The translations under genes and the position numbers were made by a program. From positions 1,312,001 through 1,376,000 of the forward strand of contig CAWFXL010000001.1 of the NCBI GenBank assembly GCA_963819815.1: DNA of 64,000 nucleotides, given 5' to 3'. Shown here in pieces: positions 9,674 to 55,806 of this stretch; position 1 is the stretch's first letter; every line of letters begins with the position of its first letter. A model generated the notes under the pieces. That model was not told where the DNA came from, made no database searches, and was given only the letters and a program-made list of their open reading frames with translations. The stretch comes from an uncultured bacterium (lineage in GTDB: Bacteria > Babelota > Babeliae > Babelales > Babelaceae).

Positions 9674-10993
9674 ATGATATACGTAAGGCTCTTTGGTATT
9701 GTGATCGTATTAAGCATAGGATCAAGCTTATGTGCGATGCAAAAAACTTTGAAAGACTTGGCACTAGAGGCTATTCTGCATGATAATACGGGCGGTCTCG
9801 CTTTAGCAGTTGAGGAAAAAGAAAATGGAGTATACAATCATCCTTTTGAGATACGGCAACTGGTAAAGCTCAGGCATCTTAATGAAAACTTAACAGGTTT
9901 TTGGCAAACTATTCCCACAGCAATTCCTTTGTTTAAACGAACGGACAGGCATATATTAAGAGGACTTTCATTTTTGGGCACCTCAAAGTATGCCATGTCA
10001 GCCACAAAAAAAGGTTTGCTGCACGTATGGGATACTGAAGAGATAAAGTACGACGATGGCGGCAAAGCGGTTCCGGTAGCTGTTCACAGGACAGGTCATG
10101 ATGAATTATCGTCAATGGCGGTAAGCGTTGATGGAAAGTACTTTGCAACGGTGAGCGGTTCCCAAGTAGACCTGTGGATGGTAGGCATGTCGATTGCGCT
10201 ACCCTTTGGTTTGAGAGGGTCATGTAAGCACCCAAGAAGAATCTGTATGGTGTCATTTAATGGGCCGGATGCTGCTATGGTCACGGGAGATATCGAAGGG
10301 TACATGTATATTTGGAATCCTAACGATTTTGAAAATCCCGAGAAGGTTATTGAACCATATATTCGCTTTAATGGTCCTGATTGTGACTCATTTAAGAGAG
10401 TTCTTGCCTTACGCCTCTGTTCAGATGGGAAAACTTTCTTATCTGCTGGCTATACTCCCGTCGGTGACTGTATGCTACCTGTGATAAGAATCTCAGAACG
10501 AGCTACTGGAATGTGTACAAAGGAAATAGTGCTTGATTGTAAGACGATTATAGGTAAGGTTTCATTTATAGATGATACTCATGCTCTTACAAGTTTTACC
10601 AGTGGGGACCTTCTAATGACCGATATAGCTCTTGGAACCACCCGAACAGTTCATTTTGAAGATCTCTCTCTTGAAACAAGTGTTTTTAGTGACGATGGGC
10701 GTCATTTATTAACTGTAGGTAAGGATCATAGGGCGATACTTTGGCAATGGGGGAAAGATTATACATATGAGAAGATCAAAGAGTTTAAAGGTGATGGACT
10801 GATAATGAATCATTGTGCATTCAGAGCGGATGGAAATGTTTTCCTCGTGGGAAGTAGTATTGGTGCTCTTGATATGTGGTCAGTAACACAAGAATATAAT
10901 CGGTTGACTTTGGAAATGGCACAGTGCCTTACAAACATTACCAATTTGGTCACCCATCTGAAGGCCTATCAAAAGGTTAGTTTGAACGGATAA
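9674..10993 (+). CDS. Exported WD40-repeat protein with N-terminal BC-box-like motif
   Basis: LHVWD, VDLWM, MYIWN, AILWQ, LDMWS blade ends and SxDG turns. Signal peptide followed by MQKTLKDLALEAI. Confidence 0.8.
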   Translation: MIYVRLFGIVIVLSIGSSLCAMQKTLKDLALEAILHDNTGGLALAVEEKENGVYNHPFEIRQLVKLRHLNENLTGFWQTIPTAIPLFKRTDRHILRGLSFLGTSKYAMSATKKGLLHVWDTEEIKYDDGGKAVPVAVHRTGHDELSSMAVSVDGKYFATVSGSQVDLWMVGMSIALPFGLRGSCKHPRRICMVSFNGPDAAMVTGDIEGYMYIWNPNDFENPEKVIEPYIRFNGPDCDSFKRVLALRLCSDGKTFLSAGYTPVGDCMLPVIRISERATGMCTKEIVLDCKTIIGKVSFIDDTHALTSFTSGDLLMTDIALGTTRTVHFEDLSLETSVFSDDGRHLLTVGKDHRAILWQWGKDYTYEKIKEFKGDGLIMNHCAFRADGNVFLVGSSIGALDMWSVTQEYNRLTLEMAQCLTNITNLVTHLKAYQKVSLNG

Positions 10994-11023
10994 AAAGAAA
11001 TTTAAAAAAATATTATTAAATTA

Positions 11024-11053
11024 TTGACAAAAGTGGTCTGATTTGGGTAGGCT
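11024..11053 (+). promoter_or_regulatory. sigma70-type promoter
   Basis: TTGACA (11024-11029), 18 bp spacer, TAGGCT (11048-11053), preceded by an AT-rich UP-like tract. Confidence 0.6.
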
Positions 11054-11059
11054 AGTAGT

Positions 11060-11216
11060 AGATGGTGGCAAAAGAGCTGCCTTAAAAATAGCTGTGGTGT
11101 GTAGGCTTTCCGGAGGTACTATTGTTTTTTCGGTTAAACAAAAGCAAACGCATTACAGCTTTTTGGTATCATATATTTTGGTTGAGTTCTTGAGAGGACT
11201 CGACTGATATTTTTTT
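11060..11216 (+). ncRNA. Candidate structured small RNA or attenuator leader
   Basis: Three hairpins with G-U pairs on the + strand, lying between a promoter and a hairpin plus U-tract. No family recognised. Confidence 0.4.
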
Positions 11217-11252
11217 AACAGCATGCCGATAGTGGTGTGCAAGGAGAATCGT

Positions 11253-11459: not shown

Positions 11460-11483
11460 TTCAGCAGCTCACTAATAATGAAT

Positions 11484-11510
11484 AGAGCCCGCTCATTGCG
11501 GGCTTTCTTC
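11484..11510 (+). terminator. Intrinsic terminator
   Basis: agagcccgc-tcatt-gcgggcttt followed by a pyrimidine tract. Confidence 0.6.
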
Positions 11511-11573
11511 ATTTCTAATAATTCTTGCATTTCATCTTAAAAAAGCCTTACCCTAGATAATAGGGGAGGAATT

Positions 11574-14223: not shown

Positions 14224-14262
14224 CTTGCGATAATTTTTAGATTCTTGAGTAAGCTTAGCCGA

Positions 14263-14935: not shown

Positions 14936-15502
14936 ATGGATGAGCCTTTATACGATATAAGCCGAGTAAATCCTCGGATTATTCTTGATATTAAATACGC
15001 AACAGCGGATAATTTTGTCGGAAAGCCAGTCTACACATGTGCTAAGGCATATCTCAGAAAGTCCGTTGCCCTGAAGCTTGACCATGTGCAACAGAAGCTT
15101 GAAAAAAAAGGTTTAGGCCTCAAAATCTGGGATGCATATCGGCCGTTTTACGTACAGCAGCTTTTGTGGGATATTGTTCCCGATGAACGCTATGTTGCGG
15201 ATCCTAAGAAAGGATCGGTTCATAATCGAGGTGCTGCTGTTGACTTGACGCTGGTAGATGCTCAAGGGTGTGAGCTTGCTATGCCGACTGCTTTTGATGA
15301 TTTTACTAAAAAAGCTCATCATGATTACGAAGATCTCCCTCAGGAAGTACTTGCTAACCGCAAACTCCTTATTGCTGTCATGGTAGCTGAAGGATTTACT
15401 CCGCTAGCAACTGAGTGGTGGCACTATAACGATAGCGCCGCTGAGGCCTATCCTCTTTCATCTACAACTTTTGAGGAGCTTGCTGCTCAAGACCCTTCTT
15501 AA
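14936..15502 (+). CDS. ddpX: D-alanyl-D-alanine dipeptidase (M15D, VanX/DdpX)
   Basis: YATADNFVG, DAYRP, SVHNRGAAVDLTL, EWWHY. Confidence 0.93.
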   Translation: MDEPLYDISRVNPRIILDIKYATADNFVGKPVYTCAKAYLRKSVALKLDHVQQKLEKKGLGLKIWDAYRPFYVQQLLWDIVPDERYVADPKKGSVHNRGAAVDLTLVDAQGCELAMPTAFDDFTKKAHHDYEDLPQEVLANRKLLIAVMVAEGFTPLATEWWHYNDSAAEAYPLSSTTFEELAAQDPS

Positions 15503-16904
15503 CTTGGTCTGAAAGGCTGGCAAGATTCGATTCCCCTTCAATTCGGGATACTTCTTTACCATTTTTTATGAGTAAGAATGCGGGAATAAGATTAATATCA
15601 TAGAGCTCAATAAGGCTATAGAGCTTATCTTTGTCGATTTTGTAGACATTAAGAGCTTCCTTATAGTTCTCTGTTATCGTGGTAAGAGGACCTTCCATTT
15701 TCCTGCAGGAGGGGCATCCGGGTGCATAAAATTCAAGAAGCACCGGCTTTGGTTCCATAAGTACCCGCCCAAATTCGCTTAGGGTAGTGATATACTTAAT
15801 AGACGGATGAGGTATGACCGGAGGGGTATAGGTATTTGAAGAAAGCAATGGACGCAACGTGCTATCAAAACCCCATTTTGAAAGCCAGGAAAGGGCATCC
15901 ATACCAGCTTTAGTACCATCGCCAGCAATTGTAGCAATCTGGCGATACGTTGGGTCAGAGACTGTTCCTGCTGCCATGATACCTTCTAGGGCAGTGTTTT
16001 GACTACGTGAGCACTCTTTAAGGGTTACGCATCCATCTTTGGTAATATCTATCTTACCTTTGAAAAGCTCAATATTTGGCGTAAGTCCTGTTGACAAGAA
16101 GATGCAGCTCGTCGGGAACGGGCTTGTTTCATGAGTAACTGTATCATAGAGCATAATATGAGTTATTCCTTTTTCATCTCCTACTATTTCTTTCACTTCT
16201 TTATTATAGAGTAGCGATATAGCTTCGAGTCCTTTGATCTTTTCTTGCATGCTTTCATGTGCGGTCATACGTGGACCAGGTACGATGAGTGTACTATGAC
16301 GTGCTTCAGGTAAGAGCTGCAGAGCACGTTGAATTGCTATGTCTCCCCCTCCAATAATCACCGCATCCTTGCCACGCGCATATGAGCCATCGCATAGTCC
16401 GCAAGAGAAAAGCCCTTTACCCCAATAGGTCTGTTCTCCCTCAATACCAAGCATTGCTTGAGTTGAGCCAGTGGCTATTATAACGGTTAATGCATAGACA
16501 TGGGTGCCATTGTTAAGAGTGAGTTTGTATGGCCATGAGGTTACATCGAGATCGTCAACCATGAGAGGGACTATCAGCGTGCCAAATTCACGTGCTTGAT
16601 GTTCTAATTTCTCCATGGCTGCTGCTCCACTGAGTTTTTCAAGGCCAGGCCAGTTTTCAACTACTTGGGCTTCGGCTAATTCGCCTCCAGGTTTCGGCCC
16701 TTGGAATACTACAGGTTGATATCCTGATCGTGCAGGGGGTAGAGCGGCAGCTAGTCCTGTTGGACCTCCACCAATAATAGCCACAGCAACTAGAGGAATC
16801 TTATGTGAGATCGAGGCAGGGATCTCTGACGAATCAATAGGCGCAAAAAGGGTCGAATATCCAAGGAATGAGACTAAGATTAACTTTCCTAGTGAAGACT
16901 TCAT
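15462..16904 (-). CDS. Thioredoxin reductase-thioredoxin fusion with signal peptide
   Basis: GGGPTG, VENWPG, IIATG, CGLCDG, GGGDIA, C-terminal Trx domain EFYAPGCPSC. Confidence 0.88.
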   Translation of the reverse strand: MKSSLGKLILVSFLGYSTLFAPIDSSEIPASISHKIPLVAVAIIGGGPTGLAAALPPARSGYQPVVFQGPKPGGELAEAQVVENWPGLEKLSGAAAMEKLEHQAREFGTLIVPLMVDDLDVTSWPYKLTLNNGTHVYALTVIIATGSTQAMLGIEGEQTYWGKGLFSCGLCDGSYARGKDAVIIGGGDIAIQRALQLLPEARHSTLIVPGPRMTAHESMQEKIKGLEAISLLYNKEVKEIVGDEKGITHIMLYDTVTHETSPFPTSCIFLSTGLTPNIELFKGKIDITKDGCVTLKECSRSQNTALEGIMAAGTVSDPTYRQIATIAGDGTKAGMDALSWLSKWGFDSTLRPLLSSNTYTPPVIPHPSIKYITTLSEFGRVLMEPKPVLLEFYAPGCPSCRKMEGPLTTITENYKEALNVYKIDKDKLYSLIELYDINLIPAFLLIKNGKEVSRIEGESNLASLSDQVKKGLEQQAPQKL

Positions 16905-31378: not shown

Positions 31379-32164
31379 ATGAATAGAATTCGATTATTTC
31401 TTGTATCATGTCTTATGTTTATGGGGTCTCACACGTATTCGATGTATAAGGATCCCGAATTCCCGGTTGTTGTTGAGAATACTCTGACAAGAAAGATTCT
31501 AGTATCTTGGGTACTACCTTCAGGAAAGAAATACACGAAAGTTATTGTTCCGACTAAGAAAGGTGAGATAACGACCTTCGAGCGATTGGGTGTCGATGCT
31601 CAAGTACGTTTTGAAGTGTATGGTACCTTCCTGGGCTGGACGGCAACTCCCATCGAGGTAGATAAGGCTGAACTCTTAAAGCAGGCCTATAAAGCTGGCA
31701 TAGGAGATGATGAGGCATTGTGCATAACCGTTTCTCAGTCGACGCTGTTTTTGAGGGTTGTCTTTTCAAATATCCCCTGGAAAAAAAATGGGCTCGAACC
31801 AAACTCGCTACTTAAGTATTTTCCCGTTTTTGATTCCTACCCTGAATTGAGAAAAATTCTCTCAGAAGAAAAGATACTTGGCTTTGTCTCGTATAAGGCT
31901 TGTCTGTATTCTCAAGATGATGGAACACTCATGGCGACGGCAGAAGATATCTATAGATACATACTTTCAGTTGAACATGACTATGATCAAACTGCACTAA
32001 AGAATGCGCTATCATTAGTAAAAGAACGTTGGCAAAAGGATGTACGAAGTTCAGACAAGAAGAAAAAACAGCGAGCACAACGAATCGTAGCACTTGCTCA
32101 AAAGGCTTTTAAAGGATTAGATCAAGCGCTCTATGAAAGAAAACAGGATGGACCTAGACCTTAA
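31379..32164 (+). CDS. Exported hypothetical protein with C-terminal J-domain-like helices (no HPD)
   Basis: RBS AAAGGAG, signal peptide, YRYILSV...ALKNALSLVKERWQKD...AQKAFKGL. Confidence 0.55.
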   Translation: MNRIRLFLVSCLMFMGSHTYSMYKDPEFPVVVENTLTRKILVSWVLPSGKKYTKVIVPTKKGEITTFERLGVDAQVRFEVYGTFLGWTATPIEVDKAELLKQAYKAGIGDDEALCITVSQSTLFLRVVFSNIPWKKNGLEPNSLLKYFPVFDSYPELRKILSEEKILGFVSYKACLYSQDDGTLMATAEDIYRYILSVEHDYDQTALKNALSLVKERWQKDVRSSDKKKKQRAQRIVALAQKAFKGLDQALYERKQDGPRP

Positions 32165-32361: not shown

Positions 32362-33597
32362 ATGAAAAGACTAGCACTTGCTCTGTTGAGTAGCACAATA
32401 TTCTCCCAATGCATATTTTCAATGATGGATGTGTTACAGCAACCCTCACTTATAGAAACACGCAAACCACTCACCTTGCAACTCATAGAAGAAGTTAAAA
32501 GGGGAAATCGCGCCGCTGCAAGGGCACTCGTCAAAAGCGGTGCACTTATAGGTGACGATGATAAGTTGCCAAACGGTCGTTACTCAGGTTGTAACTCATT
32601 TGAATGGGCAGCTATTCGGGGTGACGAAGGCTGTATGAATGATCTGCTAGATGAGCTTGGAAATAATACCCCTCCAAAAAATCCTTTGACTAAAGAATGG
32701 ATGATTATGCATCCAGATAGCAAGTATAGAATATTGAATGAAGAAATTAAGAAATATCGCCAGTTAATTGTCCCCTTTATGAGTCGTCGGAGCTTTGAAA
32801 GTACTTTTGAAGAAGAGAAGCGACTCGAGAGAATAAGGGGATTTCTTACTAGTCATAGCGACTTTCAAGGTGCACCGAATATAAAACGTTTTATGAGAAG
32901 AGTTTTACACAAAGCCGCAGTTCAGCTCATACGAGATAGACTCTTTGCCTACGCGCAAACTCTTGGAAATCAAGAACTTGCGGAAGCTCTTTTAGCTACT
33001 GGGCAAATCTATACGAAACCCCTAGAAAGCAGCAGGCCAGATTCACAAGATTTAGTGACGTTGCTCATTTCAGCAATCGGGAGACGAGATCATCAACTCA
33101 TGAAAGCCTTAATTGCTTTTGGAGTTGAGGTAAATAAGGTAATGCCAAACAGGTGGACTGTTTTTGGTGAGAAGTGGAGTCCTTTGGAAAGTGCTGCTTA
33201 CTCGGGTGATTCAATCGCCTTAAAGATACTGATCGATGCAGGCGTTAACATTGAACGCATAGGTAGTTTCGTTGGTGGAACAGCTCTTCATCTTGCCGCC
33301 GCATATCCTGCAGCTCTGCAAGTTCTTTTTGAGGCCGGTGCAGTAGCTAAACGTGAACTGAAGGGTAATAATTTTCGTCCTATTGACTACTGCCGTAATA
33401 AGGAAGCCTATTTTGAAGCACTTGTTCGGTCAAGTGTAAAAAGATATACGGGCGAAATTAGGCCGGATCAGATGGTGAACTATTTACTCGAAGAGGCAAG
33501 AAAGGAAGCTTCCCTTGAAGAGTGTTATGCAGAACTATTTCCTCATTCTCAGGCATTTGAAGAGCGATACAGAAAAATACTTGTTTCCACTCTCTAG
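32362..33597 (+). CDS. Exported ankyrin-repeat protein
   Basis: SPLESAAYSGD, GTALHLAA, LIDAGVNI, signal peptide. Confidence 0.85.
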   Translation: MKRLALALLSSTIFSQCIFSMMDVLQQPSLIETRKPLTLQLIEEVKRGNRAAARALVKSGALIGDDDKLPNGRYSGCNSFEWAAIRGDEGCMNDLLDELGNNTPPKNPLTKEWMIMHPDSKYRILNEEIKKYRQLIVPFMSRRSFESTFEEEKRLERIRGFLTSHSDFQGAPNIKRFMRRVLHKAAVQLIRDRLFAYAQTLGNQELAEALLATGQIYTKPLESSRPDSQDLVTLLISAIGRRDHQLMKALIAFGVEVNKVMPNRWTVFGEKWSPLESAAYSGDSIALKILIDAGVNIERIGSFVGGTALHLAAAYPAALQVLFEAGAVAKRELKGNNFRPIDYCRNKEAYFEALVRSSVKRYTGEIRPDQMVNYLLEEARKEASLEECYAELFPHSQAFEERYRKILVSTL

Positions 33598-33892: not shown

Positions 33893-35447
33893 ATGAAAAG
33901 ATTGCTTTTTGCTCTCCTGAGCTGCACAACACTCTCCCAGTACGTATTTTCAATGGAGACTACGCTACATCAACAGTCAATGGTCGATGCGAACAGACAT
34001 CTCACCCTTCAACTCATTGAAGAAGTAAAAAGGGGAAATCGCCCGGCAGCAATGGATCTCATTAGAAGAGGTGCCTTCATTGGTGATGATGATAGGCTGG
34101 CTAATAGCGGTTTCGGAGGTATCAACGTATTTGAATGGGCAGCTATTAGGGGCGATGAGGGTTGTATGAATGACCTTCTAGATGAGCTTGAAAATAATAC
34201 ACCTCCCAAAAATCCTTTAACTACTGAACGTTGCTCTATACATCCAGATTCGAATTATAGAATATTAAATGAAGAAATTAAGAAACATCGCGATAAGGTT
34301 ATTCCCTTATTGAGGCGTCAGACTCTTGAAAGTGCTGTTGAAGAAGAAAGGCGACTAGAAAGAATTAAAAAGTTCATTGATGGTTATGTTGGGATGACTT
34401 TGAAGGAGCACCGAATATAAAAGGGGTTCTGTCGAGAGTTTTAGATCAAGCTGAAATTCAACTGATAAAAGATAAGACCTTTGCTTACGCTCAAGCTAAC
34501 GGACACCAAGAACTGGCAGCAGCTCTTTTAGCCACGGGACAAGTCTATGCAAGACCTTTAGAAACCGGTAGGCCGTATTCGGCGGACTTCCGCGCGTGTA
34601 CTCATTTCAACAGTCGAAAGACAAGATTACCGACTCATGAGAGCATTGATAGCATGTGGAGTTGACGTAAATGCGGCACATCCCAAATATCGGGTTACTG
34701 CTTTAGAGCATGCACTATATCGTGATGACCAAACTGCCGTTAGAATACTGCTTGATGCCGGCGCCAGAACTGATCACGCAGATATGCAGTCAAGGGAAAT
34801 TAGCCCTGCATATTGCTTGTTCCCATGGAAAATCTTGTATTCCGATGCTCTTAGAAGCGGGTGCTCCAATTCAATGTGAATCTAGGGGCCATCGTCGCCT
34901 GCCAACTGATTATCTCAATGATGAAGGAAAAAAACTTTTTATTGAGTCGCTTGTTCGAACAAGTATGAAAAGATATGCACCGACACGACATGAGGCTAAG
35001 CGTGCGCTCGTAAACCTGTGGTCTAGGATCGAACTGCTCAACAAAATTGTTGCAATGCCTCCCTATGTTCTTCTTGAAATTCTCTCCTACCCTGGAGTAT
35101 CTGATAAAGATTTACGGACCCTTTCTTTGTACGAATTAGCGCACTCTTCTGACGAGATTGAGGCTCTACCCCATACGATGCCAAAGAGGTACGCGTGGGA
35201 GGCACATGAAATAAGCCGGATGTTTAACGTGTATTTTATGCCTTTCTTGGGAGAAACAAGACCTCATGCGATTAACTATCTTCTTGAACGGGCGAAAAAA
35301 GAACCTTTTGTTGAGGAGCATCATAAGGTACTCTTGCCAAATGCGGGCTCATTTGAGGAGTATTATAATGGTCCCCTTAAGTTAGCTCTGAGGAAATTGC
35401 GCTCGGAAGGCTCGACGTCAAGCTCTGCTACAAGCTCAGATAATTAA
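33893..35447 (+). pseudogene. Tandem paralogue of the upstream ankyrin protein, split into fragments by frameshifts (real or assembly error); contains an F-box-like insert
   Basis: FEWAAIRGDEGCMNDLLDEL.NNTPPKNPLT is near-identical to the paralogue. Homology continues across frames at about 34400, 34590 and 34790. Confidence 0.75.
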
Positions 35448-44838: not shown

Positions 44839-45738
44839 TTATATTTTACGTGCAATAAACTTCAAACTTGAGATAGGTAACTTATCGCTGTCAAACCATT
44901 TCTTATTGATCTCGAGGTCCTCGTCAATAATCGTTATCTCAAAACCAGCATTATTAAGCATTCCAAGATAGGTCTTTTTCAAAAGTGCTCCGCTAACGCA
45001 GGCAGATAAGAGTGCAGGGTCTTTCTTTTGGGTATCAGTAAGCTCCTGAAGCAATACAATGTCTGATATAGCCATAACACCTCCGGGCTTCAGAACTCTT
45101 GCAGCTTCTTTAAAGACAAGGTGTTTTTGAGGCGCAAGATTAATCACACAGTTGCTCATAATAACGTCAATTGAATTGCTTTCAACTGGCAATGATTCGA
45201 TATCACCTAGACGAAATTCTACATTGGAAATTCCATATTTTTTTGCATTTGCACGAGCCCTTTCAATCATGGCAGTAGTCATATCAATGCCAATAACTCT
45301 TCCATGTGTGCCAACTTTACGTGCAGCCAAAAAGCAGTCAAGTCCTGCTCCTGAACCAAGATCTAATACGACGTTCCCCTCTTTTATATATCCAAGGCTA
45401 ACTGGATGGCCGCATCCAAGGCCTAGGTTGGCATCAGCAAACATCTCAAGTTCTTCACGTGAGTAGCCAATGGTTGCTGATAGTTCACATCCACCACCGC
45501 AACAACCACCAACAGGACCAACACTATCTTTAGCTACCTCGGCATATGCTTTTTGAATAATTTTTTTTGGGTCATCAGTTTCAGCATATATCTTTTTAGA
45601 GTCAGCAAGCTTTTTCACAGGATTATTTGTAACTCTACTATTTTCTTGTTTAGGACAGCAATTTTTACCATCACAGGATTTAGCAGCCATGCATAGTGGA
45701 GTTAATGCGACGATCAAGAAAGCGTACAACATTTTCAT
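44839..45738 (-). CDS. arsM: Arsenite methyltransferase with N-terminal signal-like peptide
   Basis: GCCG, NLGLGCGHP, LDLGSGAGLDC, SNCVINL, SACVSGA. Confidence 0.88.
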   Translation of the reverse strand: MKMLYAFLIVALTPLCMAAKSCDGKNCCPKQENSRVTNNPVKKLADSKKIYAETDDPKKIIQKAYAEVAKDSVGPVGGCCGGGCELSATIGYSREELEMFADANLGLGCGHPVSLGYIKEGNVVLDLGSGAGLDCFLAARKVGTHGRVIGIDMTTAMIERARANAKKYGISNVEFRLGDIESLPVESNSIDVIMSNCVINLAPQKHLVFKEAARVLKPGGVMAISDIVLLQELTDTQKKDPALLSACVSGALLKKTYLGMLNNAGFEITIIDEDLEINKKWFDSDKLPISSLKFIARKI

Positions 45739-45837: not shown

Positions 45838-46662
45838 TTATAGACGTTTAATAAATTCAAACAAGTCTGCATTAATCAGATCTTTGTGCGTTTGGCACAT
45901 ACCATGCGGTAATCCTGGATAGACTTTGAGGAGTGCATTCTTGACAAGCTTGACAGATAGGAGCGCCGAGTCGGCGATTGGTACTATTTGATCATCATCA
46001 CCGTGCATAATCAATGTCGGAATGTCGAACTTCTTAAGATCTTCAGTGAGATCGGTCTCCGACCATGCCTTTATACCAAGATATGAAGCAGGAAAGCCGG
46101 CGAGACTTGATTGGAGCCAGAAGGATTCGCGCACACCTTCGGAGATCTTAACTCCTGGCCTATTGTATCCATAAAAAGCAAGACTAAGATCTTTCCAGAA
46201 TTGGTACCGATCTTCCTGAACCTGCTTTCTTAGGCCGTCAAATGTAGCTATAGGTAATCCCCCAGGATTACTAGCTGTTTTGAGCATGAGCGGAGGGATT
46301 GCGCTAATAAGTATTGCCTTTGCAACATTTTTGGTGCCATGTTTGCCGATATAACGAGTTACTTCACCACCTCCGGTTGAATGACCAACATGAATTGCAT
46401 TTGTAAGTTTGAGCTTTGCTACGAGCTCTGCAAGGTCGTCGGCATACGTATCTATATCATTACCATGCCACGTTTGCTCAGAGCGCCCGTGACCGCGACG
46501 ATCATGGGCTATGCAGCGGTAGCCTTGCGAGGCTAGGAAAAACATCTGGTCTTCAAAGGCATCTGCACTCAGAGGCCAGCCATGACTGAATACCACTGGC
46601 TGCCCGGTGCCCCAATCTTTGTAATACATTTGTGCGTTGTCGCTCAGGGTAAGTATGTTCAT
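45838..46662 (-). CDS. Non-heme chloroperoxidase-like alpha/beta hydrolase
   Basis: [38 protein letters not shown]. Confidence 0.92.
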
Positions 46663-46819
46663 ATCCGTCTCTCTTTGTATGTTCTGCAATGTGTGCTTTG
46701 GAAAGCTTTGGCCTGGTAGCATACAATAATACCACCTCAGCATCAAGTGAGTTGTATGCTCTTTGAGCCGCCCCATATATCCTATTTGAAGACCAATGGG
46801 AAGGGGTTGTTCCTGTAGT

Positions 46820-46893
46820 GCTCAAAATGGTGAGCCGATTAACCTCTCTATTCGGCTCAAAATTTCCATGTTTCTGAGCCGATTAATACTCTA
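46820..46893. repeat. Short alternating direct/inverted repeat cluster
   Basis: TGAGCCGATTAA at 46831 and 46875, inverted TCGGCTCA at 46852, GCTCAAAAT twice. Confidence 0.6.
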
Positions 46894-46970
46894 GGATGCA
46901 AAGGGTTAAGGAAAATGAAATACAGTTATCAGCCACCACTAGCACAGCCTGCTATTACCTGAAGTAGCTC

Positions 46971-47951
46971 CTAGAGGATTTTCCAGGGGCTTGCCGCAAG
47001 CTCGCTTGGAATTTTTATAGGAAGGATAATTCTCATATTATCTTGAGATAAAGCTACCATAACAAGGGCATATTCTTCATCGAGGCATGCTGTGAGAGCT
47101 CTGAGTTCATCCGTAGGAATATGGAGTGCATGTTCATTACATTGAGCTACATAGAGGTCTAGAATGCCGTTCACATCCATAGTTTTTAATTTTCCTGCTA
47201 GAGTACATGTTAGGCCCTGAGCAAATAATGTTTTTATCTCAGGATGGAGAAATGAAAAATACTGTTTTTTTAAGATCATGTACGCTCTTTGTATCAGATC
47301 AAGTGCTTTCATTGCAAACTCTCGATTATGTTGTGCTTGATAGAGGCATATCTTCTTAAGGCGTTGATAGGCTTCTTCAAGAGCCTTTGGATAGGTAACC
47401 GTTGCAAGATCATCCGGCAGACTTAGAAAATGTTGTGGCAGGGGGGTAGTCCCATTTTTAAGGGCATATGCGACGTTGGGAAAATATGCTAATAATGTTG
47501 ATTGTTCATTCACCTTCAGCTCTTCGCTTAATGCATTTGCTCTTAATAGAGTTGCGGTAAAGCAAAAGGGCACAAGATTTCTGATAATACCGGATGTGGG
47601 TTGAGTTGTGATGGTGAGCATCATGTGTTGTTCAGATTTACAGGTTTCAAAATCCTTGCGAGTGCATAGGTTTTCAGGGGTGCGTAACTGTACTTTACTC
47701 CAAGGACCACAGGAAACTATCTGCATGGCTTTCATTCGATCTGGAGCTGCAAGAATGAGCTTCCCCTGGGGCACAATTGTAGCACCGAGCACTATACCAT
47801 CCTGGTAGGAATAGGTAACTAAGAGCTTCCAGTCGGTTTTATTTGAAAGAAGCATTCTTTGAGAAAGGCTGTTCGTTATGTTGACTTCTTGAGTCATTCC
47901 CAGAAGAGAGGCGCTCACACATAACAACGGGATGCATAAGATATTCATCAT
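46971..47951 (-). CDS. Exported hypothetical protein, distant paralogue of 31379..32164 (J-like helices)
   Basis: RBS GAGGAG, signal peptide, LSNKTDWKLLVTY, LLAYFP, ALEEAYQRL...IQRAYMIL. Confidence 0.55.
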   Translation of the reverse strand: MMNILCIPLLCVSASLLGMTQEVNITNSLSQRMLLSNKTDWKLLVTYSYQDGIVLGATIVPQGKLILAAPDRMKAMQIVSCGPWSKVQLRTPENLCTRKDFETCKSEQHMMLTITTQPTSGIIRNLVPFCFTATLLRANALSEELKVNEQSTLLAYFPNVAYALKNGTTPLPQHFLSLPDDLATVTYPKALEEAYQRLKKICLYQAQHNREFAMKALDLIQRAYMILKKQYFSFLHPEIKTLFAQGLTCTLAGKLKTMDVNGILDLYVAQCNEHALHIPTDELRALTACLDEEYALVMVALSQDNMRIILPIKIPSELAASPWKIL

Positions 47952-48111
47952 TGCTCCTCTCGGCATATACACTTGTACCAGTGTACCAAAAGGCTCATGA
48001 TTTGCGAAAATGATCTGTTTGCATAACCAATCTGCTCAAGTTGCAAAACGAGGGTTTTTGATGGATATGCATTGCAGGTGTGTAACGGTATGAAACGGCG
48101 AAGGTAGTATC

Positions 48112-48146
48112 TTAGTAGTGTTGCGAGCTAGTTGCAACACTACTAA
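48112..48146. terminator. Hairpin downstream of the USP genes
   Basis: ttagtagtgttgc...gcaacactactaa. Confidence 0.6.
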
Positions 48147-48154
48147 CTAGCGTA

Positions 48155-49504
48155 TTATCTTTTTTTCCCCTGAGTGGTGGTAGCTGGAGCAGCTTTAGCT
48201 CTTCTCACTACAGTTGGGGGCTTTGGTCCTGCGTTTAGGCGCCTGATCCCTGGCTGTGGATTTGGAGCATTTCTCGTAGTACTCGTTGTACTCGAGGATG
48301 ATGACGTGTTTTTCGGTAGCCTTCTTTGTACTGTTCTTCTAGTATTTGTAGTGCTGGTACTCGAGGAGGAGGTACTTCTCGCAGGTTGATGTGCAGGGGC
48401 ATACTGAGGTCTTGTTGCTGAGTGCTCGTATATCAGCGTTGTCACAAGGGTGTTCTTATTGGCGCCATAGCCTAGTTGTCCTATTTTGAACACTTCCTGC
48501 TCGCTGCAAGGTGTAATAGTCTCATCATTGCAATAATACCATTCATTGCCTGCTTTTACATAGGCGGTATAGTGGCCAGAGTTTGCTGATCCGCTATGCA
48601 TAATGATGCTAACAACTTCATAATCACCGCAACTTTTTGATGGATCTTTAAAACAGCGATCAAATGATTGGTTATACAGATCAAATGAAATAGGATTTTC
48701 ATGTCGAGTAAACGTAGGTACTGCTTGTCCTCGTGTTCTCCGTATAAAGTTTTTTCTATCTAATGAACAAATAACATATCGGCCAGTTCTTTGAAGAAAG
48801 GTATGGCGCTCTCCATCGACAGGTCCTAGTCCTTCAATAGCTACAGCATCGAATGAAGGCTGAGAGAAAGATTGTAAACATTCGTTAATATTTCTACTTT
48901 CTGGAAGTACCTTCAAACTAAGGCAAGGCGAATACTGGACTTCTTTATCTGACTCGAAAAATCCGACTTCACCTAGATCTGCATAGGCCTTACTTTCAGA
49001 AAACACATAAAAGAGTTGTGCTAGATCAGTTTTGAGTTCTTCAGGATACTGTGCAAGATCTGAGTCGTTTGGCTCGTCGTGACGTGCAAAAAGTGGCCAC
49101 TTGGTATCTTTAACATCTTTGTAGGTAATACATTCTAAGAGCTCTCGTAAGAGTTCATTGGCATCAGCCTGATCGCAGGGATCATCGTTGAGTTGATGCC
49201 ATCCACGAAAGCAGAAAGTCGACGGGTCAATTTCGTCATCATCTGTATCTGAATGCATGAAATGTGGTAATAAATCTGTATAGGCCTCGGCAAGGCTATC
49301 TTTCTTGTACACACTATCTTTGTTCTGCTGGTTAAGCAAGTAGGTGATGTCCTGCATAGCATAGACTGCCTGAAGTGCTGCATTCATAAAGCAGTTTGAG
49401 CCAATGTTTTTGAGCGGAGCTGGTTTGAGCGGCTCCATGCATATTATTGGAGTCATATAGCTCATAATGACGATGTATAAAAGGGTCTTAGTTTTATGTA
49501 TCAT
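48155..49504 (-). CDS. Exported ubiquitin-specific protease (peptidase C19/USP family)
   Basis: Cys box LKNIGSNCFMNAALQAV, QADANE, His box HSGSANSGHYTAY, WYYCND. Confidence 0.9.
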   Translation of the reverse strand: MIHKTKTLLYIVIMSYMTPIICMEPLKPAPLKNIGSNCFMNAALQAVYAMQDITYLLNQQNKDSVYKKDSLAEAYTDLLPHFMHSDTDDDEIDPSTFCFRGWHQLNDDPCDQADANELLRELLECITYKDVKDTKWPLFARHDEPNDSDLAQYPEELKTDLAQLFYVFSESKAYADLGEVGFFESDKEVQYSPCLSLKVLPESRNINECLQSFSQPSFDAVAIEGLGPVDGERHTFLQRTGRYVICSLDRKNFIRRTRGQAVPTFTRHENPISFDLYNQSFDRCFKDPSKSCGDYEVVSIIMHSGSANSGHYTAYVKAGNEWYYCNDETITPCSEQEVFKIGQLGYGANKNTLVTTLIYEHSATRPQYAPAHQPARSTSSSSTSTTNTRRTVQRRLPKNTSSSSSTTSTTRNAPNPQPGIRRLNAGPKPPTVVRRAKAAPATTTQGKKR

Positions 49505-49528
49505 AATGCACTCTTGTTATTTTTAAAT

Positions 49529-50653
49529 CTATTTTTTATTAAGTATACATAATTTTATCAAATTGTAAATACCAGAAGATGAGCTTGATGATCTTGTTGA
49601 ATAGGTAGGGCGTGCGCTGGATAACTCATAGATAAAGGTTGTAGCTACAGAACCATTTTCTGTAGAGCCTTGTTGTGAAATGCGCGTCATGCTTTCTTCT
49701 GAAACTGGTGTAACAGCAGCATCATCACAAAAGTACCACTGGTTTCCTAACTTTGAGTAGGTAGTATAATGACCACCGTCTGCGTTGCCGCAATGCATAA
49801 TGACGGCAATAAGTTCATAGGGACCTTTACTTCTTTCCTTAAGGAGGAAATAGGGAGAAAGATCGAGCTTATTTAGGGGAAAGCTGATGCGCGCATCTTC
49901 TTTCATGTATGAGATTCCTGCTTGCCCTCTATGCCCTTCTTTTCGGTCGAGCATAATGAAAAGATAGTTTTGTGTTTCCTCGAGAAATCGTCTGTTAGCC
50001 CCTTCAATTAAGGTATCTGGATCGCTTCTAAAATGTTCGCTTTGGCTTTGAAAATACCGGTCAAGGCAGTTTGAGAGAGTCTTATCTTCGGGTCGCACTT
50101 CTAAGCTGAGTCCAATGGTCTGCTCTGGCGATTTGGTGCCGATAAAAGCCTCATTTTTGGGATCTATTCTTAGATGGCGGATATGTACATAAAACAGTTC
50201 TGAGAGCTCCGTTCTCATCGTTGGAATCTGAGTTCCTTTATACTTGGGATGATATGGCTTGTACTCATCATTAATGTCAGTCTCGGTAATATGGTTGAGA
50301 ATTGTTGCTAAACAGTCATTTGCATCTCCTTGTTCACGTTCGTTCATCCCAAGGTGAGCATATATGCTGGTATGGAGTTCCGCGGGGCCTATTGAAGAAC
50401 TTTGTGCGGTGCGAAGCTGGATGGCGCAATCTCTTAAGAGAGCAGACAGGCTACCCGGCTTGAGGTAATATCCATGCTCGAGTGCCATCGACACTAAATC
50501 TACCGATGCATGCAAAGCTTGAAGGCTCGCATTAATGAAGCAGGCATTCCTCTGGTTGACCAGTCCTTTAGGGATATAGATGTTGTTTTCTCCCATGCCA
50601 AAGGCACTGGCCGGTAGGCATAGTAGAGCGATACTGAATAGTTTGTGTACCAT
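49529..50653 (-). CDS. Exported ubiquitin-specific protease (peptidase C19/USP family)
   Basis: Cys box GLVNQRNACFINASLQAL, QGDAND, ISFP, YELIAVIMHCGNADGGHY, WYFCDD. Confidence 0.92.
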   Translation of the reverse strand: MVHKLFSIALLCLPASAFGMGENNIYIPKGLVNQRNACFINASLQALHASVDLVSMALEHGYYLKPGSLSALLRDCAIQLRTAQSSSIGPAELHTSIYAHLGMNEREQGDANDCLATILNHITETDINDEYKPYHPKYKGTQIPTMRTELSELFYVHIRHLRIDPKNEAFIGTKSPEQTIGLSLEVRPEDKTLSNCLDRYFQSQSEHFRSDPDTLIEGANRRFLEETQNYLFIMLDRKEGHRGQAGISYMKEDARISFPLNKLDLSPYFLLKERSKGPYELIAVIMHCGNADGGHYTTYSKLGNQWYFCDDAAVTPVSEESMTRISQQGSTENGSVATTFIYELSSARPTYSTRSSSSSSGIYNLIKLCILNKK

Positions 50654-50736
50654 AAAAAGCTCCCCCGGATTATATTTTTTTATATTTACTAATAGTAACT
50701 ATATAGAGGGAGGGGGAACTTGTCAAGGGGGCGAAT

Positions 50737-51399
50737 TTATCGAGCCATAAGGGAAGAGCGGAGGGCTTTGATTGCAAATACGGGATTATGTCCTGAAAAG
50801 ACTGCCGATCCGATGATGAGTTGGTCTGCACCAGCCTTTACAAGTGCTTGGACATTTTCTTGGTCGATTCCTCCATCTATGGCTATTACATAGGGTTTAT
50901 GGGATTCTTTTCCTATGTTGATGGCTTCCTGCAGCTTGAGTAAAACTAGCGGCATGAACTCTTGGCCTGAAAAACCTGGATGCACTGACATAAGAAGGAG
51001 ATGGTTAAAGGGGGCTGAAACTTTTTTAAGGATGCTCGAAGAGGTTTCGGGATTAAGGGCTAGGCTTGGTATCCATCCATACGAGCTTATTAAGTGCACA
51101 AGTTTGTCTAACGGTAAGCTTGAAGGGCTTTCAGGATGGACTGCGACAATATCACCTTGTTGAAGTATTACCCGTTCAAAGTAGCGTTCGGGGTACTCGA
51201 CCATAAAGTGCACGTATAGAGGCTTTTGGGTTGCCTTGCGTATGGCATTAATGGTATCAGGGCCTAGGGTAAGATTAGGAACGAAATGGAAATCCATGAC
51301 ATCAATATGGTACCCGTCGACATAAGGATCAAGCTGTGCGAGCTCCTTTTCAAGATTAAGGAGATTGGCAGCGATTAAGGAGGGAAAGAGTTGTATCAT
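50737..51399 (-). CDS. rpe: Ribulose-phosphate 3-epimerase
   Basis: PSLIAAN, HIDVMDFHFVPNLTLG, MSVHPGFSGQ, IDGGI. Confidence 0.95.
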   Translation of the reverse strand: MIQLFPSLIAANLLNLEKELAQLDPYVDGYHIDVMDFHFVPNLTLGPDTINAIRKATQKPLYVHFMVEYPERYFERVILQQGDIVAVHPESPSSLPLDKLVHLISSYGWIPSLALNPETSSSILKKVSAPFNHLLLMSVHPGFSGQEFMPLVLLKLQEAINIGKESHKPYVIAIDGGIDQENVQALVKAGADQLIIGSAVFSGHNPVFAIKALRSSLMAR

Positions 51400-51648
51400 A
51401 GCTATAACCGAGCGTAACCTTTTGAGTACTCACGATAGTTCCTGTATGCATGAAATCTATCATTTCACCATGTATTTGTAAACTATGAGAACTGTTTCAC
51501 CGGCTATTTTGTAGAATGGGGTACAGCACACATAGCGAGAAACTCGCCTTGACCAGCATCGACTAATCTTTAGGATGGGTTCAGTGTCCACTAGTAGGTC
51601 CCCTAGTAGCCACCAAGTGAAGGTTATGGGAGTTGTACTATTCAGTCA

Positions 51649-54600
51649 CTAGCGGCGATTGAGCCATGCATGTACATTTGAGCCAACTATGATAGCGGCG
51701 CAGGAGATACCCAAAACTAACATTTGAATTTTCTCCAATTTCGCCTGGTGTTTCCGCTTACATGCCTCTTCGTAGGATTGCTTACCTCCTAAGTCGCTTA
51801 GAATCTGTAAAATTTTCTCTTTATCCGTCTTCTTTTTCTCTGTGTACTCTAAACTAAGGGTCTGCTCATATGCATCAGCTATGATTTCACGTGAACATCT
51901 TGGTGCGAGAGCTTCTACATGCTCAGACGTGAGAGAATTAACGGCATACCAGAGCGCCGTGCGTCCCTTAGCGTCACGCATTTCTATAAACCCTTGAGAG
52001 AGCCTTGCAGCAAGCTTCTTGATTGGATGGGGCGAATAGCTCCAATCACTATCGTTAACGGCATGGAAAAGTACCGTTTTGCACTCTGGGTCTTTTTCTA
52101 GGCGGTCTATAGTTTCTTGTGAGCTGCGCTCAGAGAGTGTTTCTATATCGTACCATGAATGGGCTTCTACCGCACGCAAAAGGGCACTTTTGCCCTGCTC
52201 GTCAACCTTATCTATCGTACTTGGGGAGCTTTGCCATGCAAGTGACTCTACCATACCCCAATTGCGTACCGCTACTGCATGAGCTAAGGCGGTTTTTCCC
52301 TCAGCATCAGTGATGTCCCCTAAATGGAGCCCGCCTTCAGCAGTAACTCTTAGCCAAGAAGGATCCTCTCTGTGTGAAGCTCTACCATATTGACTGATTA
52401 ACCTATCAAACTTATTGTAGTAATGCTCACGTGGTGTTGTCTGTATAATTCTGATTAAAGAGCCTCGTATGAGAGATTCGTCGGCATGCTCAAAGAATAC
52501 TTGGGCTAACTTTCCTTCGACACAATAATTGCCCGTCATGCAGTTACTCGCAGCATACGCAAATGCATTGTTCCCCTCGTTGTCATCGATAGTAAGGCTT
52601 GCTTTATGTTTCAGCAAAGCCTTTATAACATCCAAGATGATTTCTCTATTGGCAGTTCTCTTCTTGAATACTTTCAGTGTGCAGAGTAATGCCGTCTCTC
52701 CCTCATTATTTTGCACATTAATGGTTTCTTGTATCGCTCTATGAGCTAATAACATCTCAACAACGGGATGATTATTTTCAGAGAGAGGCACCTTTTTACA
52801 TGCATGGATGAGTGTCGTATCGCCGTCTTCGTCCTGCACTCCAGCATCGGCACCATGTTCAAGTAAATGCGCAACAGTTCTTTGAGCAGCGTCTATCGGG
52901 CACCCTGACAAACATGCCTCTATCGCATACCTAAGTGCAGTTCTTCCTTTTTTATCTCGTAAGTTTACTCCCTCAGGGCATGCTTTCATGTACTCTAAAA
53001 GCATGCGGACTTCTTCGTCAGCGCATTTTTCTGCTGACAACATCAGAGCCGTCTGTCCATCGCTATTTTGCACATTGATGGACTGTTGTACTGATGCATG
53101 TGCTAACAACAGCCCCAAAAGTTGATGATTGTTTTCACGGCGAGGAGCATTTTGACATGCACAGATGAGCGCTGTATTGCCGTTATTGTCCTGCATTCCA
53201 GCATCGGCACCTTCTTCAAGTATATGCGCCATAATCTTTGGGGTAGCATCTGTCGGGCATGTTGATTCGCATGCTTCTACCGCATACATAAGTGCAGTTT
53301 TGCCTGTATTATCCCGTCCATTTATCGCCTCTGGGTATTCTTTCATGTACTTCAATAGTCTGTAAACTTCTGAGATCTTGCCCAGTTGAGATGACAACAT
53401 TAGAGCAGTACAGCCATGCTCATTACAACTGAGGGCATGAGCTCGATGTTTTAAGAGTGTGTCCATGGCCAACCAGCCCATGCGCTTTGTGCCCGCAACA
53501 ATCACCAGCGCTGTACGTCCTTGCAAATCGATACTATCGACGGGAACACCATAGTCTAGAAGAACTTCAAGCATTTGATGATCGCAATCTACAGCAGCTT
53601 TTAGGTATGCATCCTTCAATGGATGGTTTGCTCCAAGCTTTAACAAAACTGCTACTGCAGGGGCATTGGAGTAAGACAGCTCCCTTGCAAGCCTATTGTC
53701 AATATTGTAACCAGGTGCTTTTGCTAAGAGCAATGGAACGATGTCAGGAGAGTGCCTCAATGCTATGTCGAGCGCATTTTGGTTATCATAATTGCGTACC
53801 AGAGGGTTAGCTCCTAGCTCAAGAAGACGTGTCACTATTGATCTCGTCCAGTCTGCTGAATGTGCTGCCGCTGTCATCAGTGCCGTTGTTCCATTTTTAT
53901 TCTTTATATCAACAAACTTAGGAGATGCCTTTGAAAGGCACATAAGAGCTACCTCTTCACTACCATAGGCTCGACTCACTGCATACATAAGGGGAGTCTC
54001 TTGATCATTGTTCTGAGTATCGACAGAAGCATTATGTTCGAGTAATATCCTCATATCTTGTAAAGAATATCGTGCATCCATTCTTCGGGTTTTAATCGCA
54101 TGCACAAGAGGAGTATTTCCTAGTTTATCTTGTTCATGAATATCAGCTCCCTTTGATATAAGTGCTGCCACGACGCCTTTGCTCTGTGCTAACTTGGCAG
54201 CCAACATAAGAGCAGTTTCCCCATCGTTATTTTTCATAGAAACTGTCTCCGTGGAGGCCCTTGAAAGGCATAGTGTAATAACCTCTAGGTCACCAGAACG
54301 TAGAGCCCACATGAGTGGTGTATCACCTGCGGTATTCTGCATGCCAACATCAGCACCTGACTGAAGTAAGAACGTAATGCCATCTAATGAAGAGTCTACT
54401 ACGTCATCATCATTATCGTTAGAAGGCACTGCTGAACCTGTTGTATTTCTAAGAGCATAGACTAACGGAGTATTACCTTCCTCGTCCTTCCAATTTACTT
54501 GAGCACCTCGTTGAAGAGTGTCCTTCATTTGCTCAGAGTTTCGTTCAGATGCTGCCTTCCCAAACTCACGTTGTACCGCACGTTGACCCTCGATTACGAG

Positions 54601-55806
54601 TGCTGCAACACCACGCTGTGTAAGAAGTGTGATCATTGAATTGTTGCCAGCAGCGAGAGCTCGATGATATGCAGCAATTAGCCCATCATTCATTGCCCCA
54701 TGATTAAAGAAGTACTCAGCTGCTGGAGCTGATCCGCAGCGTAAGGCCGTCTCAAGTCCTCTATGTACATCATAGCCGCCAATCTTTTCAACCAATAGGG
54801 GTACGACATCGGGACATTTAGCGAAGGCAAAATCGATGAGATCTGCACCGGGAATGTCCATGATGGCTGCTCCCTTGTTTAGGAGCAATGGCACGATACT
54901 TGTAGCCCAAGGGCTTTCAATCGCTATCATGAGTGCAGTTCGGCCTCTTTTATTCTTTTTGATAACTGCATCCTGTTTCGCTCCTAAAAGGCATGCTTTC
55001 GCAAGAGCTTCACTGCCATATTCCCTATCTATCGCATACATAAGAGGAGTTGCGCCATCTTGATTTGCTATGCCTACATCTGCACCCCTTTCAAGAAGAA
55101 GTTCAATTACATCTAACGATCGACTTGATGCTGTTCTACTCGCTTTGATTAGGTAGGCAAGGGCAGTATTTCCTGTTGAATCTTTCTCATTAACCAGAGC
55201 CCCGCGAGCAATAAGTTCATTGAGCAACTCTTTGCTTTTTCCGGCCCGAGCTGCCAGAATAAGGGCAGTCTCTTCTTTATTGTTCCTCATAGAAGTTATT
55301 TTGGGATCAGTCTTTGCAAGGCATAGGGTAGCTATAGCCCCATTCTCATGTGTTACCGCAAGCATAAGGGGCGTATCTCCCCTACTATTTTGTATGCCCA
55401 CATAAGCACCATGCTCAAGTAGAAACGCCAACGCTCCTAAGGAACATCGCATGCCTTTAAGTAAATTCAAAAGCACCGTATTACCTGAGGCATCTGTACG
55501 ATTTACCAAAGCGCCTTGTGAAATACAGTCTTGCATCTTTGCTGTATCGCCTGCCAAAGCAGCTTCCAAAAGTTGATTTTGAGCAAGAACGATCATGGCA
55601 GCTTGATGTGCTACCTCAGGATCCTCTAGGAGGTTGCGGGCTAAGCCTTGTTGGTTAATAATCTGCGGAATCCTCTCCTCTACTCTATGTTCGCTCTTAG
55701 ATGTTGTTGTAGAAGAATTTGTTTGGACAAGCATAGTATTCATCGCAGAACAGCAGGTCGCTATACTGACCAAGTAAGAAATTTTTGCCAGGTTGAGCAT
55801 TTTCAT
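51649..55806 (-). CDS. Large exported ankyrin-repeat protein (>20 repeats) with C-terminal TM
   Basis: Repeated GxT(P/A)LMxA...LLxxGAD, signal peptide, C-terminal MLVLGISCAAIIVGS. Confidence 0.92.
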   Translation of the reverse strand: MKMLNLAKISYLVSIATCCSAMNTMLVQTNSSTTTSKSEHRVEERIPQIINQQGLARNLLEDPEVAHQAAMIVLAQNQLLEAALAGDTAKMQDCISQGALVNRTDASGNTVLLNLLKGMRCSLGALAFLLEHGAYVGIQNSRGDTPLMLAVTHENGAIATLCLAKTDPKITSMRNNKEETALILAARAGKSKELLNELIARGALVNEKDSTGNTALAYLIKASRTASSRSLDVIELLLERGADVGIANQDGATPLMYAIDREYGSEALAKACLLGAKQDAVIKKNKRGRTALMIAIESPWATSIVPLLLNKGAAIMDIPGADLIDFAFAKCPDVVPLLVEKIGGYDVHRGLETALRCGSAPAAEYFFNHGAMNDGLIAAYHRALAAGNNSMITLLTQRGVAALVIEGQRAVQREFGKAASERNSEQMKDTLQRGAQVNWKDEEGNTPLVYALRNTTGSAVPSNDNDDDVVDSSLDGITFLLQSGADVGMQNTAGDTPLMWALRSGDLEVITLCLSRASTETVSMKNNDGETALMLAAKLAQSKGVVAALISKGADIHEQDKLGNTPLVHAIKTRRMDARYSLQDMRILLEHNASVDTQNNDQETPLMYAVSRAYGSEEVALMCLSKASPKFVDIKNKNGTTALMTAAAHSADWTRSIVTRLLELGANPLVRNYDNQNALDIALRHSPDIVPLLLAKAPGYNIDNRLARELSYSNAPAVAVLLKLGANHPLKDAYLKAAVDCDHQMLEVLLDYGVPVDSIDLQGRTALVIVAGTKRMGWLAMDTLLKHRAHALSCNEHGCTALMLSSQLGKISEVYRLLKYMKEYPEAINGRDNTGKTALMYAVEACESTCPTDATPKIMAHILEEGADAGMQDNNGNTALICACQNAPRRENNHQLLGLLLAHASVQQSINVQNSDGQTALMLSAEKCADEEVRMLLEYMKACPEGVNLRDKKGRTALRYAIEACLSGCPIDAAQRTVAHLLEHGADAGVQDEDGDTTLIHACKKVPLSENNHPVVEMLLAHRAIQETINVQNNEGETALLCTLKVFKKRTANREIILDVIKALLKHKASLTIDDNEGNNAFAYAASNCMTGNYCVEGKLAQVFFEHADESLIRGSLIRIIQTTPREHYYNKFDRLISQYGRASHREDPSWLRVTAEGGLHLGDITDAEGKTALAHAVAVRNWGMVESLAWQSSPSTIDKVDEQGKSALLRAVEAHSWYDIETLSERSSQETIDRLEKDPECKTVLFHAVNDSDWSYSPHPIKKLAARLSQGFIEMRDAKGRTALWYAVNSLTSEHVEALAPRCSREIIADAYEQTLSLEYTEKKKTDKEKILQILSDLGGKQSYEEACKRKHQAKLEKIQMLVLGISCAAIIVGSNVHAWLNRR

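Follow-up and report, generated by a model that had tools for sequence, protein, structure and literature searches.

A junction in which a small residue is followed directly by methionine and then by a polar residue, placed at the predicted signal-peptide cleavage site, is a recurrent feature of secretomes throughout the Babeliales (Dependentiae). It is enriched in a eukaryote-like class of exported proteins (ankyrin, WD40, UCH, MYND and PLA2-type), being neither universal in that class nor exclusive to it. Eight proteins with this Met junction are encoded in the 64,000-nucleotide stretch analyzed here (hereafter the window; G000:C1:1312001-1376000), which belongs to the genome of an uncultured member of the Babelaceae (G000; 1.64 Mb, 42.7% G+C, two contigs). 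Based on the sequence patterns described below, we tentatively favor the view that cleavage by signal peptidase I leaves host-directed proteins with a Met-polar N-terminus, one that selection may have kept, a view in which our confidence falls somewhat short of even.

The original prediction listed eight exported proteins of the window with a small residue and then Met at residues 19-23, at the expected cleavage site. All eight N-termini match the sequence exactly, with Met as residue 22, 22, 21, 21, 19, 23, 20 and 22 (in the order of table 1) preceded by A, S, S, S, G, C, G and A, and the Met sits exactly at the predicted cleavage site. A Shine-Dalgarno (SD)-like site lies 5' of the signal-peptide ATG in all eight (GGAAGGA..GAGGGAG in the WD40 protein 9674-10993), as does a hydrophobic core within each signal peptide; Lys or Arg is found among the first residues of seven and is lacking from the protein starting at 47951. 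The five envelope-type sites given for contrast (AQA↓R, VEA↓K, LFA↓P, VFA↓D and VHA↓D) and the two effector-like exceptions (the ankyrin protein 28365-29120 and the protein 4165-4902) are likewise as described. Pfam supports the labels WD40 for 9674, ankyrin for 32362 and 55806 and USP for 49504 and 50653. The ankyrin label of the short open reading frame (ORF) 33893-34420 was not confirmed, as the scan returned 0 families; its N-terminus is paralogous to that of 32362.

The pattern extends to the whole genome. Genes were called with our own codon-usage caller (1441 in G000), and a strict signal-peptide-like filter requiring an SD site, a basic n-region and a hydrophobic core retained 440 of them (31%). 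Met occupies +1 at 40 of 408 sites predicted by a (-3,-1) rule that is blind to the +1 residue (9.8%), compared with a Met share of 1.81% in mature regions (binomial p=1e-17), and is the most enriched +1 residue; in a first version of the rule (406 sites) the commonest +1 residues were Ser (54) and Met (39). The excess is sharply confined to one position, with 40 Met at +1 and 7-15 at each of +2 to +9. The same pipeline applied to a 400-kb sample from each of four relatives gives +1 Met at 12/93 sites in G006 (same genus), 13/64 in G092 (same family) and 9/89 and 14/97 in G057 and G025 (other families), again as a peak (48/343 at +1 versus 8-14 at +2 to +9, pooled). The five Babeliales genomes, from four families, thus range from 9.8 to 20.3%; paralogues and related genomes within this set are not independent observations. 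In Escherichia coli K-12 (1.6 Mb sampled) the count is 5/128, and all five cases are either membrane anchors or Ala followed by Met and then Ala or Ser. One of these is LamB, whose true cut we take to be after A-M-A.

A looser criterion, any A, G, S, C or T followed by Met at most 11 residues from the hydrophobic core, was satisfied by 95/438 proteins in G000 and dropped, because E. coli reaches 22/131 (16.8%) and the criterion therefore does not discriminate. It was replaced by two statistics: Met at +1 of the blind-rule site, and A, G, S, C or T, then Met, then a polar residue at the signal-peptide end (the [AGSCT]-Met-[polar] motif). The latter does discriminate, with 62/440 in G000 versus 4/131 in E. 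coli. When Met at +1 must be followed by a polar residue that is not small, the motif is absent from the E. coli control (0/128) and present at 60/751 sites in the five Dependentiae genomes (p=9e-5), or at 26/408 in G000 alone (p=0.0014).

The residue after the boundary Met is also biased. It is D, E, N or Q in 92 of 193 cases in the five genomes (48%), compared with 46 of 200 (23%) at +2 of other reliable sites (p=3e-7), which bears out a remark on M-E/D/N/Q termini in the original prediction, and L, F, W, Y or I is depleted (20/193 versus 51/200, p=1e-4). In G000 alone the D/E/N/Q share is 44% of 96, about twice the ∼24% at residue 2 of non-exported starts, so that a plain start-codon relic does not predict the bias. 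The dominant residue is Asn in G000 (20%) and Glu and Asp in the relatives; true starts, too, have an excess of Asn at residue 2 (10-18%). Four of the eight window proteins (MQ, ME, ME and MN) would have termini of the NatB type, the substrate class of this acetyltransferase being Met-Asp, Met-Glu, Met-Asn and Met-Gln.

The signal peptides themselves resemble the others of the genome. We rejected a distinct type for the Met-junction proteins, as the two groups are alike in length (20.1 versus 19.7 residues), hydropathy, charge and Cys content. The small uncharged -1 residue and hydrophobic core of all eight window proteins are Sec-type features, such signal peptides having a basic n-region, an h-region of ∼8-15 hydrophobic residues, a total length of ∼18-25 and small uncharged residues at -3 and -1. 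In G000 the residues before the boundary Met are A35, S31, G17, C7 and T6 at -1, where the filter limits the choice to these, and L27, S13, A11, V9, I8 and T8 at -3, which is unfiltered. Judged by eye, a lipoprotein signal (signal peptidase II, with the lipobox L-[AS]-[GA]-C and Cys at +1) can be dismissed, as none of the eight has Gly, Ala or Ser followed by Cys and then the mature part; the junction residue is Met and the Cys residues lie at -2, -1 or further upstream. A twin-arginine (Tat) signal (S/T-R-R-x-F-L-K in the n-region) was likewise dismissed by eye, no RR pair being found in any of the eight n-regions. G000 encodes a signal peptidase I (TIGR02227 match above cut-off at G000:C2:3411-4130), and a second match (G000:C1:973980-974435) contains an in-frame TAG. 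Several relatives (G002, G003, G009 and G013) have 2-4 signal peptidase I matches, some in tandem, including three in G003:C4:6145-9246.

Ankyrin proteins were identified with a hidden Markov model built from 40 Pfam Ank_2 matches and searched against our own gene calls of G000, because the Ank_2 search of this genome had scored only 150 of 338 candidates. G000 encodes 92 ankyrin proteins by this model, nearly all with hydrophobic N-termini. The [AGSCT]-Met-[polar] motif is found in 23 of 63 ankyrin proteins and in 39 of 377 other signal-peptide-like proteins (p=8e-7); with paralogue groups counted once, any +1 Met is found in 8/22 and 21/272, respectively (p=4e-4). The original prediction had proposed looking for such enrichment genome-wide, here and in relatives, and with this motif it is indeed found, at 49/121 ankyrin versus 83/706 non-ankyrin proteins in the five genomes pooled. 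The bias recurs in three of the four other Babeliales genomes (8/10 versus 15/95 in G006, 10/22 versus 9/58 in G092 and 4/6 versus 12/100 in G025), and many ankyrin proteins that fail the strict filter show the same Met junction when judged by eye. Among the other eukaryote-like proteins of G000, both UCH genes carry the junction, as do 6 of 11 WD40 genes, the remainder comprising three with a hydrophobic N-terminus lacking the Met and two with no signal peptide. A Pfam scan covered 19 of the 23 strict non-ankyrin Met-junction proteins (excluding two paralogues and two proteins of the window that had been scanned before) and returned PLA2_B, zf-MYND, WD40, AAA, M16 peptidase and periplasmic-binding domains, with no Pfam family in 13 of the 19. 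The PLA2_B lysophospholipase domain and a C-terminal MYND zinc finger occur in signal-peptide proteins at G000:C1:634000-636702 and C1:1390219-1391415.

Orthologues of the window proteins were found in one related genome, G001, where the Met is kept in three of three: in the counterpart of 48155-49504 with -1 changed from C to G, in that of 49529-50653, and in that of 51649-55806 (44% identity over 120 residues) with -1 changed from A to G. No G001 match was found for 46971-47948. The two USP paralogues of the window, which are 27-31% identical, both keep the Met. The comparison is limited to three genes because the effector block to which they belong (two USP genes and the 1385-residue ankyrin gene, window 46500-56600) has its only match in G001. 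For the remaining eight genomes of the genus, matches are confined to rpe and groES within the query, which lie ∼1.2 kb apart in G005, and the block accordingly looks like a recent insertion. No public sequencing runs are listed for window 46501-56500. Further afield, ankyrin signal peptides cannot be aligned between genomes of four families, yet similar shares of them carry the Met.

Under the reading that we favor, ordinary Sec-type signal peptides would be cut by signal peptidase I just before the Met, and the first two residues of the mature exported protein would be Met and a polar residue, the latter being D, E, N or Q roughly half of the time. Selection would then maintain this N-terminus on host-directed proteins, beyond a frozen accident. 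The benefit would act in the host cell, where Met-D/E/N/Q may pass for a normal cytosolic eukaryotic N-terminus, although such a host-side benefit is only weakly suggested, more weakly than selection itself. Met-D/E/N/Q does not act as a destabilizing N-degron, unlike Met with a bulky hydrophobic residue after it, and a mechanism involving the N-end rule and NatB is consistent with the data. With the Met cases removed, residues at +1 that are stabilizing under the N-degron rules are also commoner in ankyrin proteins (25/39 versus 146/329, p=0.026). The more specific proposal of an effector maturation code, in which cleavage deliberately exposes Met-D/E/N/Q so that the protein evades N-degron surveillance and is perhaps N-acetylated like host proteins, is possible, if on the doubtful side.

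Several observations weigh against selection and a host-side role. NatB acts on nascent chains, which makes acetylation of an imported protein speculative, and A, S, G and T are equally stabilizing N-termini, which leaves the preference for Met in particular unexplained. All cleavage sites are heuristic predictions, in a set that includes membrane anchors and mispredicted sites, and the control is a single genome. The ankyrin bias is not significant in G057 (4/20 versus 8/76, p=0.27), and non-ankyrin proteins carry the junction at no significantly different rate whether conserved or lineage-specific (5/57 versus 34/320, p=0.8). In UCH homologues across the order, which mostly have signal peptides, the usual junction residue is Q, A or I, and a clear Met is seen at 2 of 29 loci, indicating that the rule is statistical and not bound to a family. 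Met had been put forward in the original prediction as marking the eukaryote-like proteins; it is far commoner there, but not a strict mark, as ∼60% of ankyrin proteins are without the junction (others begin with E, K or I) and ∼12% of non-ankyrin signal-peptide proteins, an M16 peptidase among them, possess it. Finally, conservation of the Met column within paralogue families does not exceed that of the adjacent columns (0.35 versus 0.27-0.44). Between homologous pairs, which are pseudo-replicated by large families and so non-independent, substitution of the Met by L, I, V or A is frequent, in part through single-base changes.

These last two observations are what would be expected if the Met were an evolutionary scar, that is, if signal peptides had been created or fused upstream of cytosolic-type ORFs whose old initiator ATG remains without function; replacement by L, I, V or T is the outcome that neutral single-base changes would produce. 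This explanation, which we consider a somewhat unlikely but serious alternative, also accommodates the bias toward proteins that must have gained export secondarily (ankyrin, WD40, UCH, MYND and PLA2_B), and the Asn that follows Met in G000 as it does at true starts. It does not account for the D/E/N/Q share among boundary Met residues, nor for the depletion of hydrophobic residues there, and the (-3,-1) motif is found directly in front of the Met instead of being scattered around it. The similar frequencies in four families with unalignable signal peptides would need the Met to be retained beyond its flanks or to be gained continually, yet ankyrin proteins without a signal peptide are so few that they offer little raw material for repeated gains. 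The Met kept in G001 despite changes at -1, and in both USP paralogues, also speaks against a scar, as does the lack of a significant GTG or TTG excess at the +1 codon (GTG 7/22 versus 0.19, p=0.17; TTG 3/31 versus 0.11), a comparison of low power. Shared promoter and signal-peptide modules joined to unrelated mature parts, which would fit a scar, do exist: a blastn comparison of the -120 to +90 regions of 440 genes gave 182 similar pairs, 23 of them with unrelated mature parts. We nevertheless rejected a mobile signal-peptide cassette as the cause of the Met rule, as these 23 are too few, are mostly tandem neighbors and are mostly outside the Met-junction class. Examples of such modules are G000:C1:1588328-1589572 with C1:921236-922936 and the tandem sets at C1:260-263 kb and C1:1147-1148 kb, in which the upstream region and signal peptide share 72-90% DNA identity and the mature parts show no BLASTP similarity, their cargo having diverged.

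The same class and dipeptide biases would fit a sorting tag, by which a Met-acidic or Met-amide N-terminus is read in the periplasm and directs proteins to cross the outer membrane or enter vesicles. Lipoproteins, by analogy, follow N-terminal sorting rules, and G000 has four secretin-domain genes above the Pfam cut-off, three of them clustered within 8 kb (G000:C1:1178086-1185459) and the fourth at C1:22164-22663, adjoining a fragment with an in-frame TGA. Type II secretion is generally held to recognize folded cargo and not N-terminal peptides, no motif is evident beyond two residues, the majority of ankyrin proteins would be untagged, and no candidate reader protein was identified, which together render the idea improbable, even though Sec export followed by release or vesicles is proposed in the accessible part of the paper on a cultured relative (PMC6561590). 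A still lower probability attaches to the junction being an artefact or an enzyme preference, with uncleaved anchors, cuts elsewhere (for example after A-M-A) or a peptidase that generally favors or tolerates Met at P1'. Our rule does mispredict LamB in this way, the loose criterion is readily satisfied in E. coli, non-ankyrin proteins exceed the E. coli rate about fourfold (83/706 versus 4/131, p=0.0016) and 1-4 signal peptidase I matches are found per relative, in some cases as tandem copies. The Met is, however, mostly followed by D, E, N, Q, K or T, impossible as a -1 residue, in a subset that has no E. coli members, and the strong ankyrin bias argues against a general enzyme preference. 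Least probable of all is dual initiation, with the inner ATG as a second start giving a cytoplasmic, signal-less isoform beside the exported one. An in-frame ATG does lie exactly where the mature protein starts, and residue 2 is somewhat start-like (Asn), but the SD score before the boundary ATG averages 0.58 (76% with none), no higher than at random internal ATGs (0.77), compared with 3.45 at real starts (76% scoring 3 or more). On these scores an SD-driven internal start was rejected as the main explanation, and it is hard to see what purpose a host-directed ankyrin protein would serve in the bacterial cytoplasm. Exposure of a selected Met-polar terminus by signal peptidase I remains the reading we prefer, on the tentative terms stated at the outset.

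The window features are collected in table 1, together with a weaker additional candidate, 44839-45738. The latter is an S-adenosylmethionine methyltransferase-domain protein with a Cys-rich start, an enzyme type that is usually cytoplasmic, and a cut after C-M-A is a possible alternative to one before Met17.

Table 1. Signal peptides and boundary Met residues of the window (positions are those of the window; E, Pfam E-value)
Protein	Signal peptide and boundary Met	Span	Strand	Met codon	Pfam
WD40 protein 9674-10993	21 aa, MIYVRLFGIVIVLSIGSSLCA; Met22	9674..9739	+	9737-9739	WD40, E=9e-11
261-aa protein 31379-32164	21 aa, ...GSHTYS; Met22	31379..31444	+	31442-31444	0 families
Ankyrin protein 32362-33597	20 aa, ...SQCIFS; Met21	32362..32424	+	32422-32424	Ank_2, E=1.2e-10
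Protein 33893-34420	20 aa, ...SQYVFS; Met21	33893..33955	+	33953-33955	0 families
Protein 46971-47951	18 aa, MMNILCIPLLCVSASLLG; Met19	47895..47951	-	47895-47897	no family
UCH/USP deubiquitinase-like 48155-49504	22 aa, ...MTPIIC; Met23	49436..49504	-	49436-49438	UCH, E=3e-25
UCH/USP-like 49529-50653	19 aa, ...PASAFG; Met20	50594..50653	-	50594-50596	UCH, E=1.5e-27
1385-aa ankyrin protein 51649-55806	21 aa, ...IATCCSA; Met22	55741..55806	-	55741-55743	Ank_2, E=3e-97
Weaker candidate 44839-45738	16-aa hydrophobic N-terminus, ...ALTPLC; Met17	45688..45738	-	45688-45690	Methyltransf_31, E=5.5e-41

Another usually cytoplasmic protein type of the window, a pyridine-nucleotide disulphide oxidoreductase fused to thioredoxin (15462-16904, minus strand), also has a signal-peptide-like N-terminus. 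Beyond the effector block, groEL (56571-58133, plus strand) is present as four ORFs in different frames, 3' of an intact groES (56277-56567), which cover successive positions 1-70, 157-301, 331-382 and 393-477 of the Cpn60_TCP1 profile. The broken groEL is either a pseudogene or the result of assembly indel errors. A penicillin-binding protein on the minus strand is similarly split into transpeptidase and dimerization-domain ORFs (60881-61759 and 61885-62511), a second sign of frameshifts in the same stretch.

Dependentiae are widespread and mostly uncultured parasites of protists, and a cleavage-site rule would provide a cheap predictor of host-directed proteins among their hundreds of orphan genes. 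It would also offer a handle on whether Sec-delivered effectors are shaped by eukaryotic N-degron and N-acetylation systems. Should the Met prove to be only a scar, it would still document large-scale recruitment of cytosolic-type genes into the secretome via upstream addition of signal peptides.

Among known systems, Type IV prepilins offer a partial parallel, as their dedicated cleavage can leave Met at the mature N-terminus. Their leaders are short and basic and are cut after Gly to leave a mature Phe or Met, with the hydrophobic stretch following the cut. We rejected a leader of this type because in the Babeliales proteins the hydrophobic segment is N-terminal to the Met, which is itself followed by polar residues.

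Closer in lineage is Chromulinavorax destructans, for which 44% of coding sequences are described as having signal peptides, as are 78% of 98 ankyrin proteins (PMC6561590). These effectors share both the lineage and the combination of signal peptide and ankyrin repeats with the G000 proteins, and the accessible part of that paper makes no mention of methionine at the cleavage site. A full-text literature search, which did not extend to supplements, found no description of a Met rule at signal-peptide cleavage sites.

The proposed role in the host has its own precedent in the N-end-rule control of a bacterial toxin that reaches the host cytosol (PMC2518864). In that case, as far as the accessible text describes it, the exposed mature N-terminal residue can set the fate of a protein in the host cytosol; such cases are single proteins supported by experiments, whereas the Met rule consists of statistics over hundreds of predicted proteins. 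Listeriolysin is reportedly another case.

The nearest likeness is the Q-rule of Bacteroidetes, in which Gln occupies +1 of signal peptidase I substrates and is cyclized to pyroglutamate (PMC5837995; PMC10653852). Neither methionine nor TM6 or Dependentiae is mentioned in the accessible text of the first of these papers, and Gln is found at +1 in 14 of 406 sites in G000, which thus does not follow the Q-rule. Both patterns are specific to a phylum or order, concern the one residue right after the signal peptidase I site, are visible by genome-wide statistics only and have been proposed to protect or stabilize the new N-terminus. They differ in that the Babeliales residue is Met, in that it is found in ∼10-20% of predicted substrates (∼40% of ankyrin proteins) as opposed to the majority under the Q-rule, and in that the Met junction is biased toward host-directed proteins. 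The Met junction would thus be a lineage-specific +1 rule of a known kind with the Q-rule as precedent, the second example of lineage-specific selection on the residue after the cut and, if the maturation code is correct, the first such rule tied to host mimicry.

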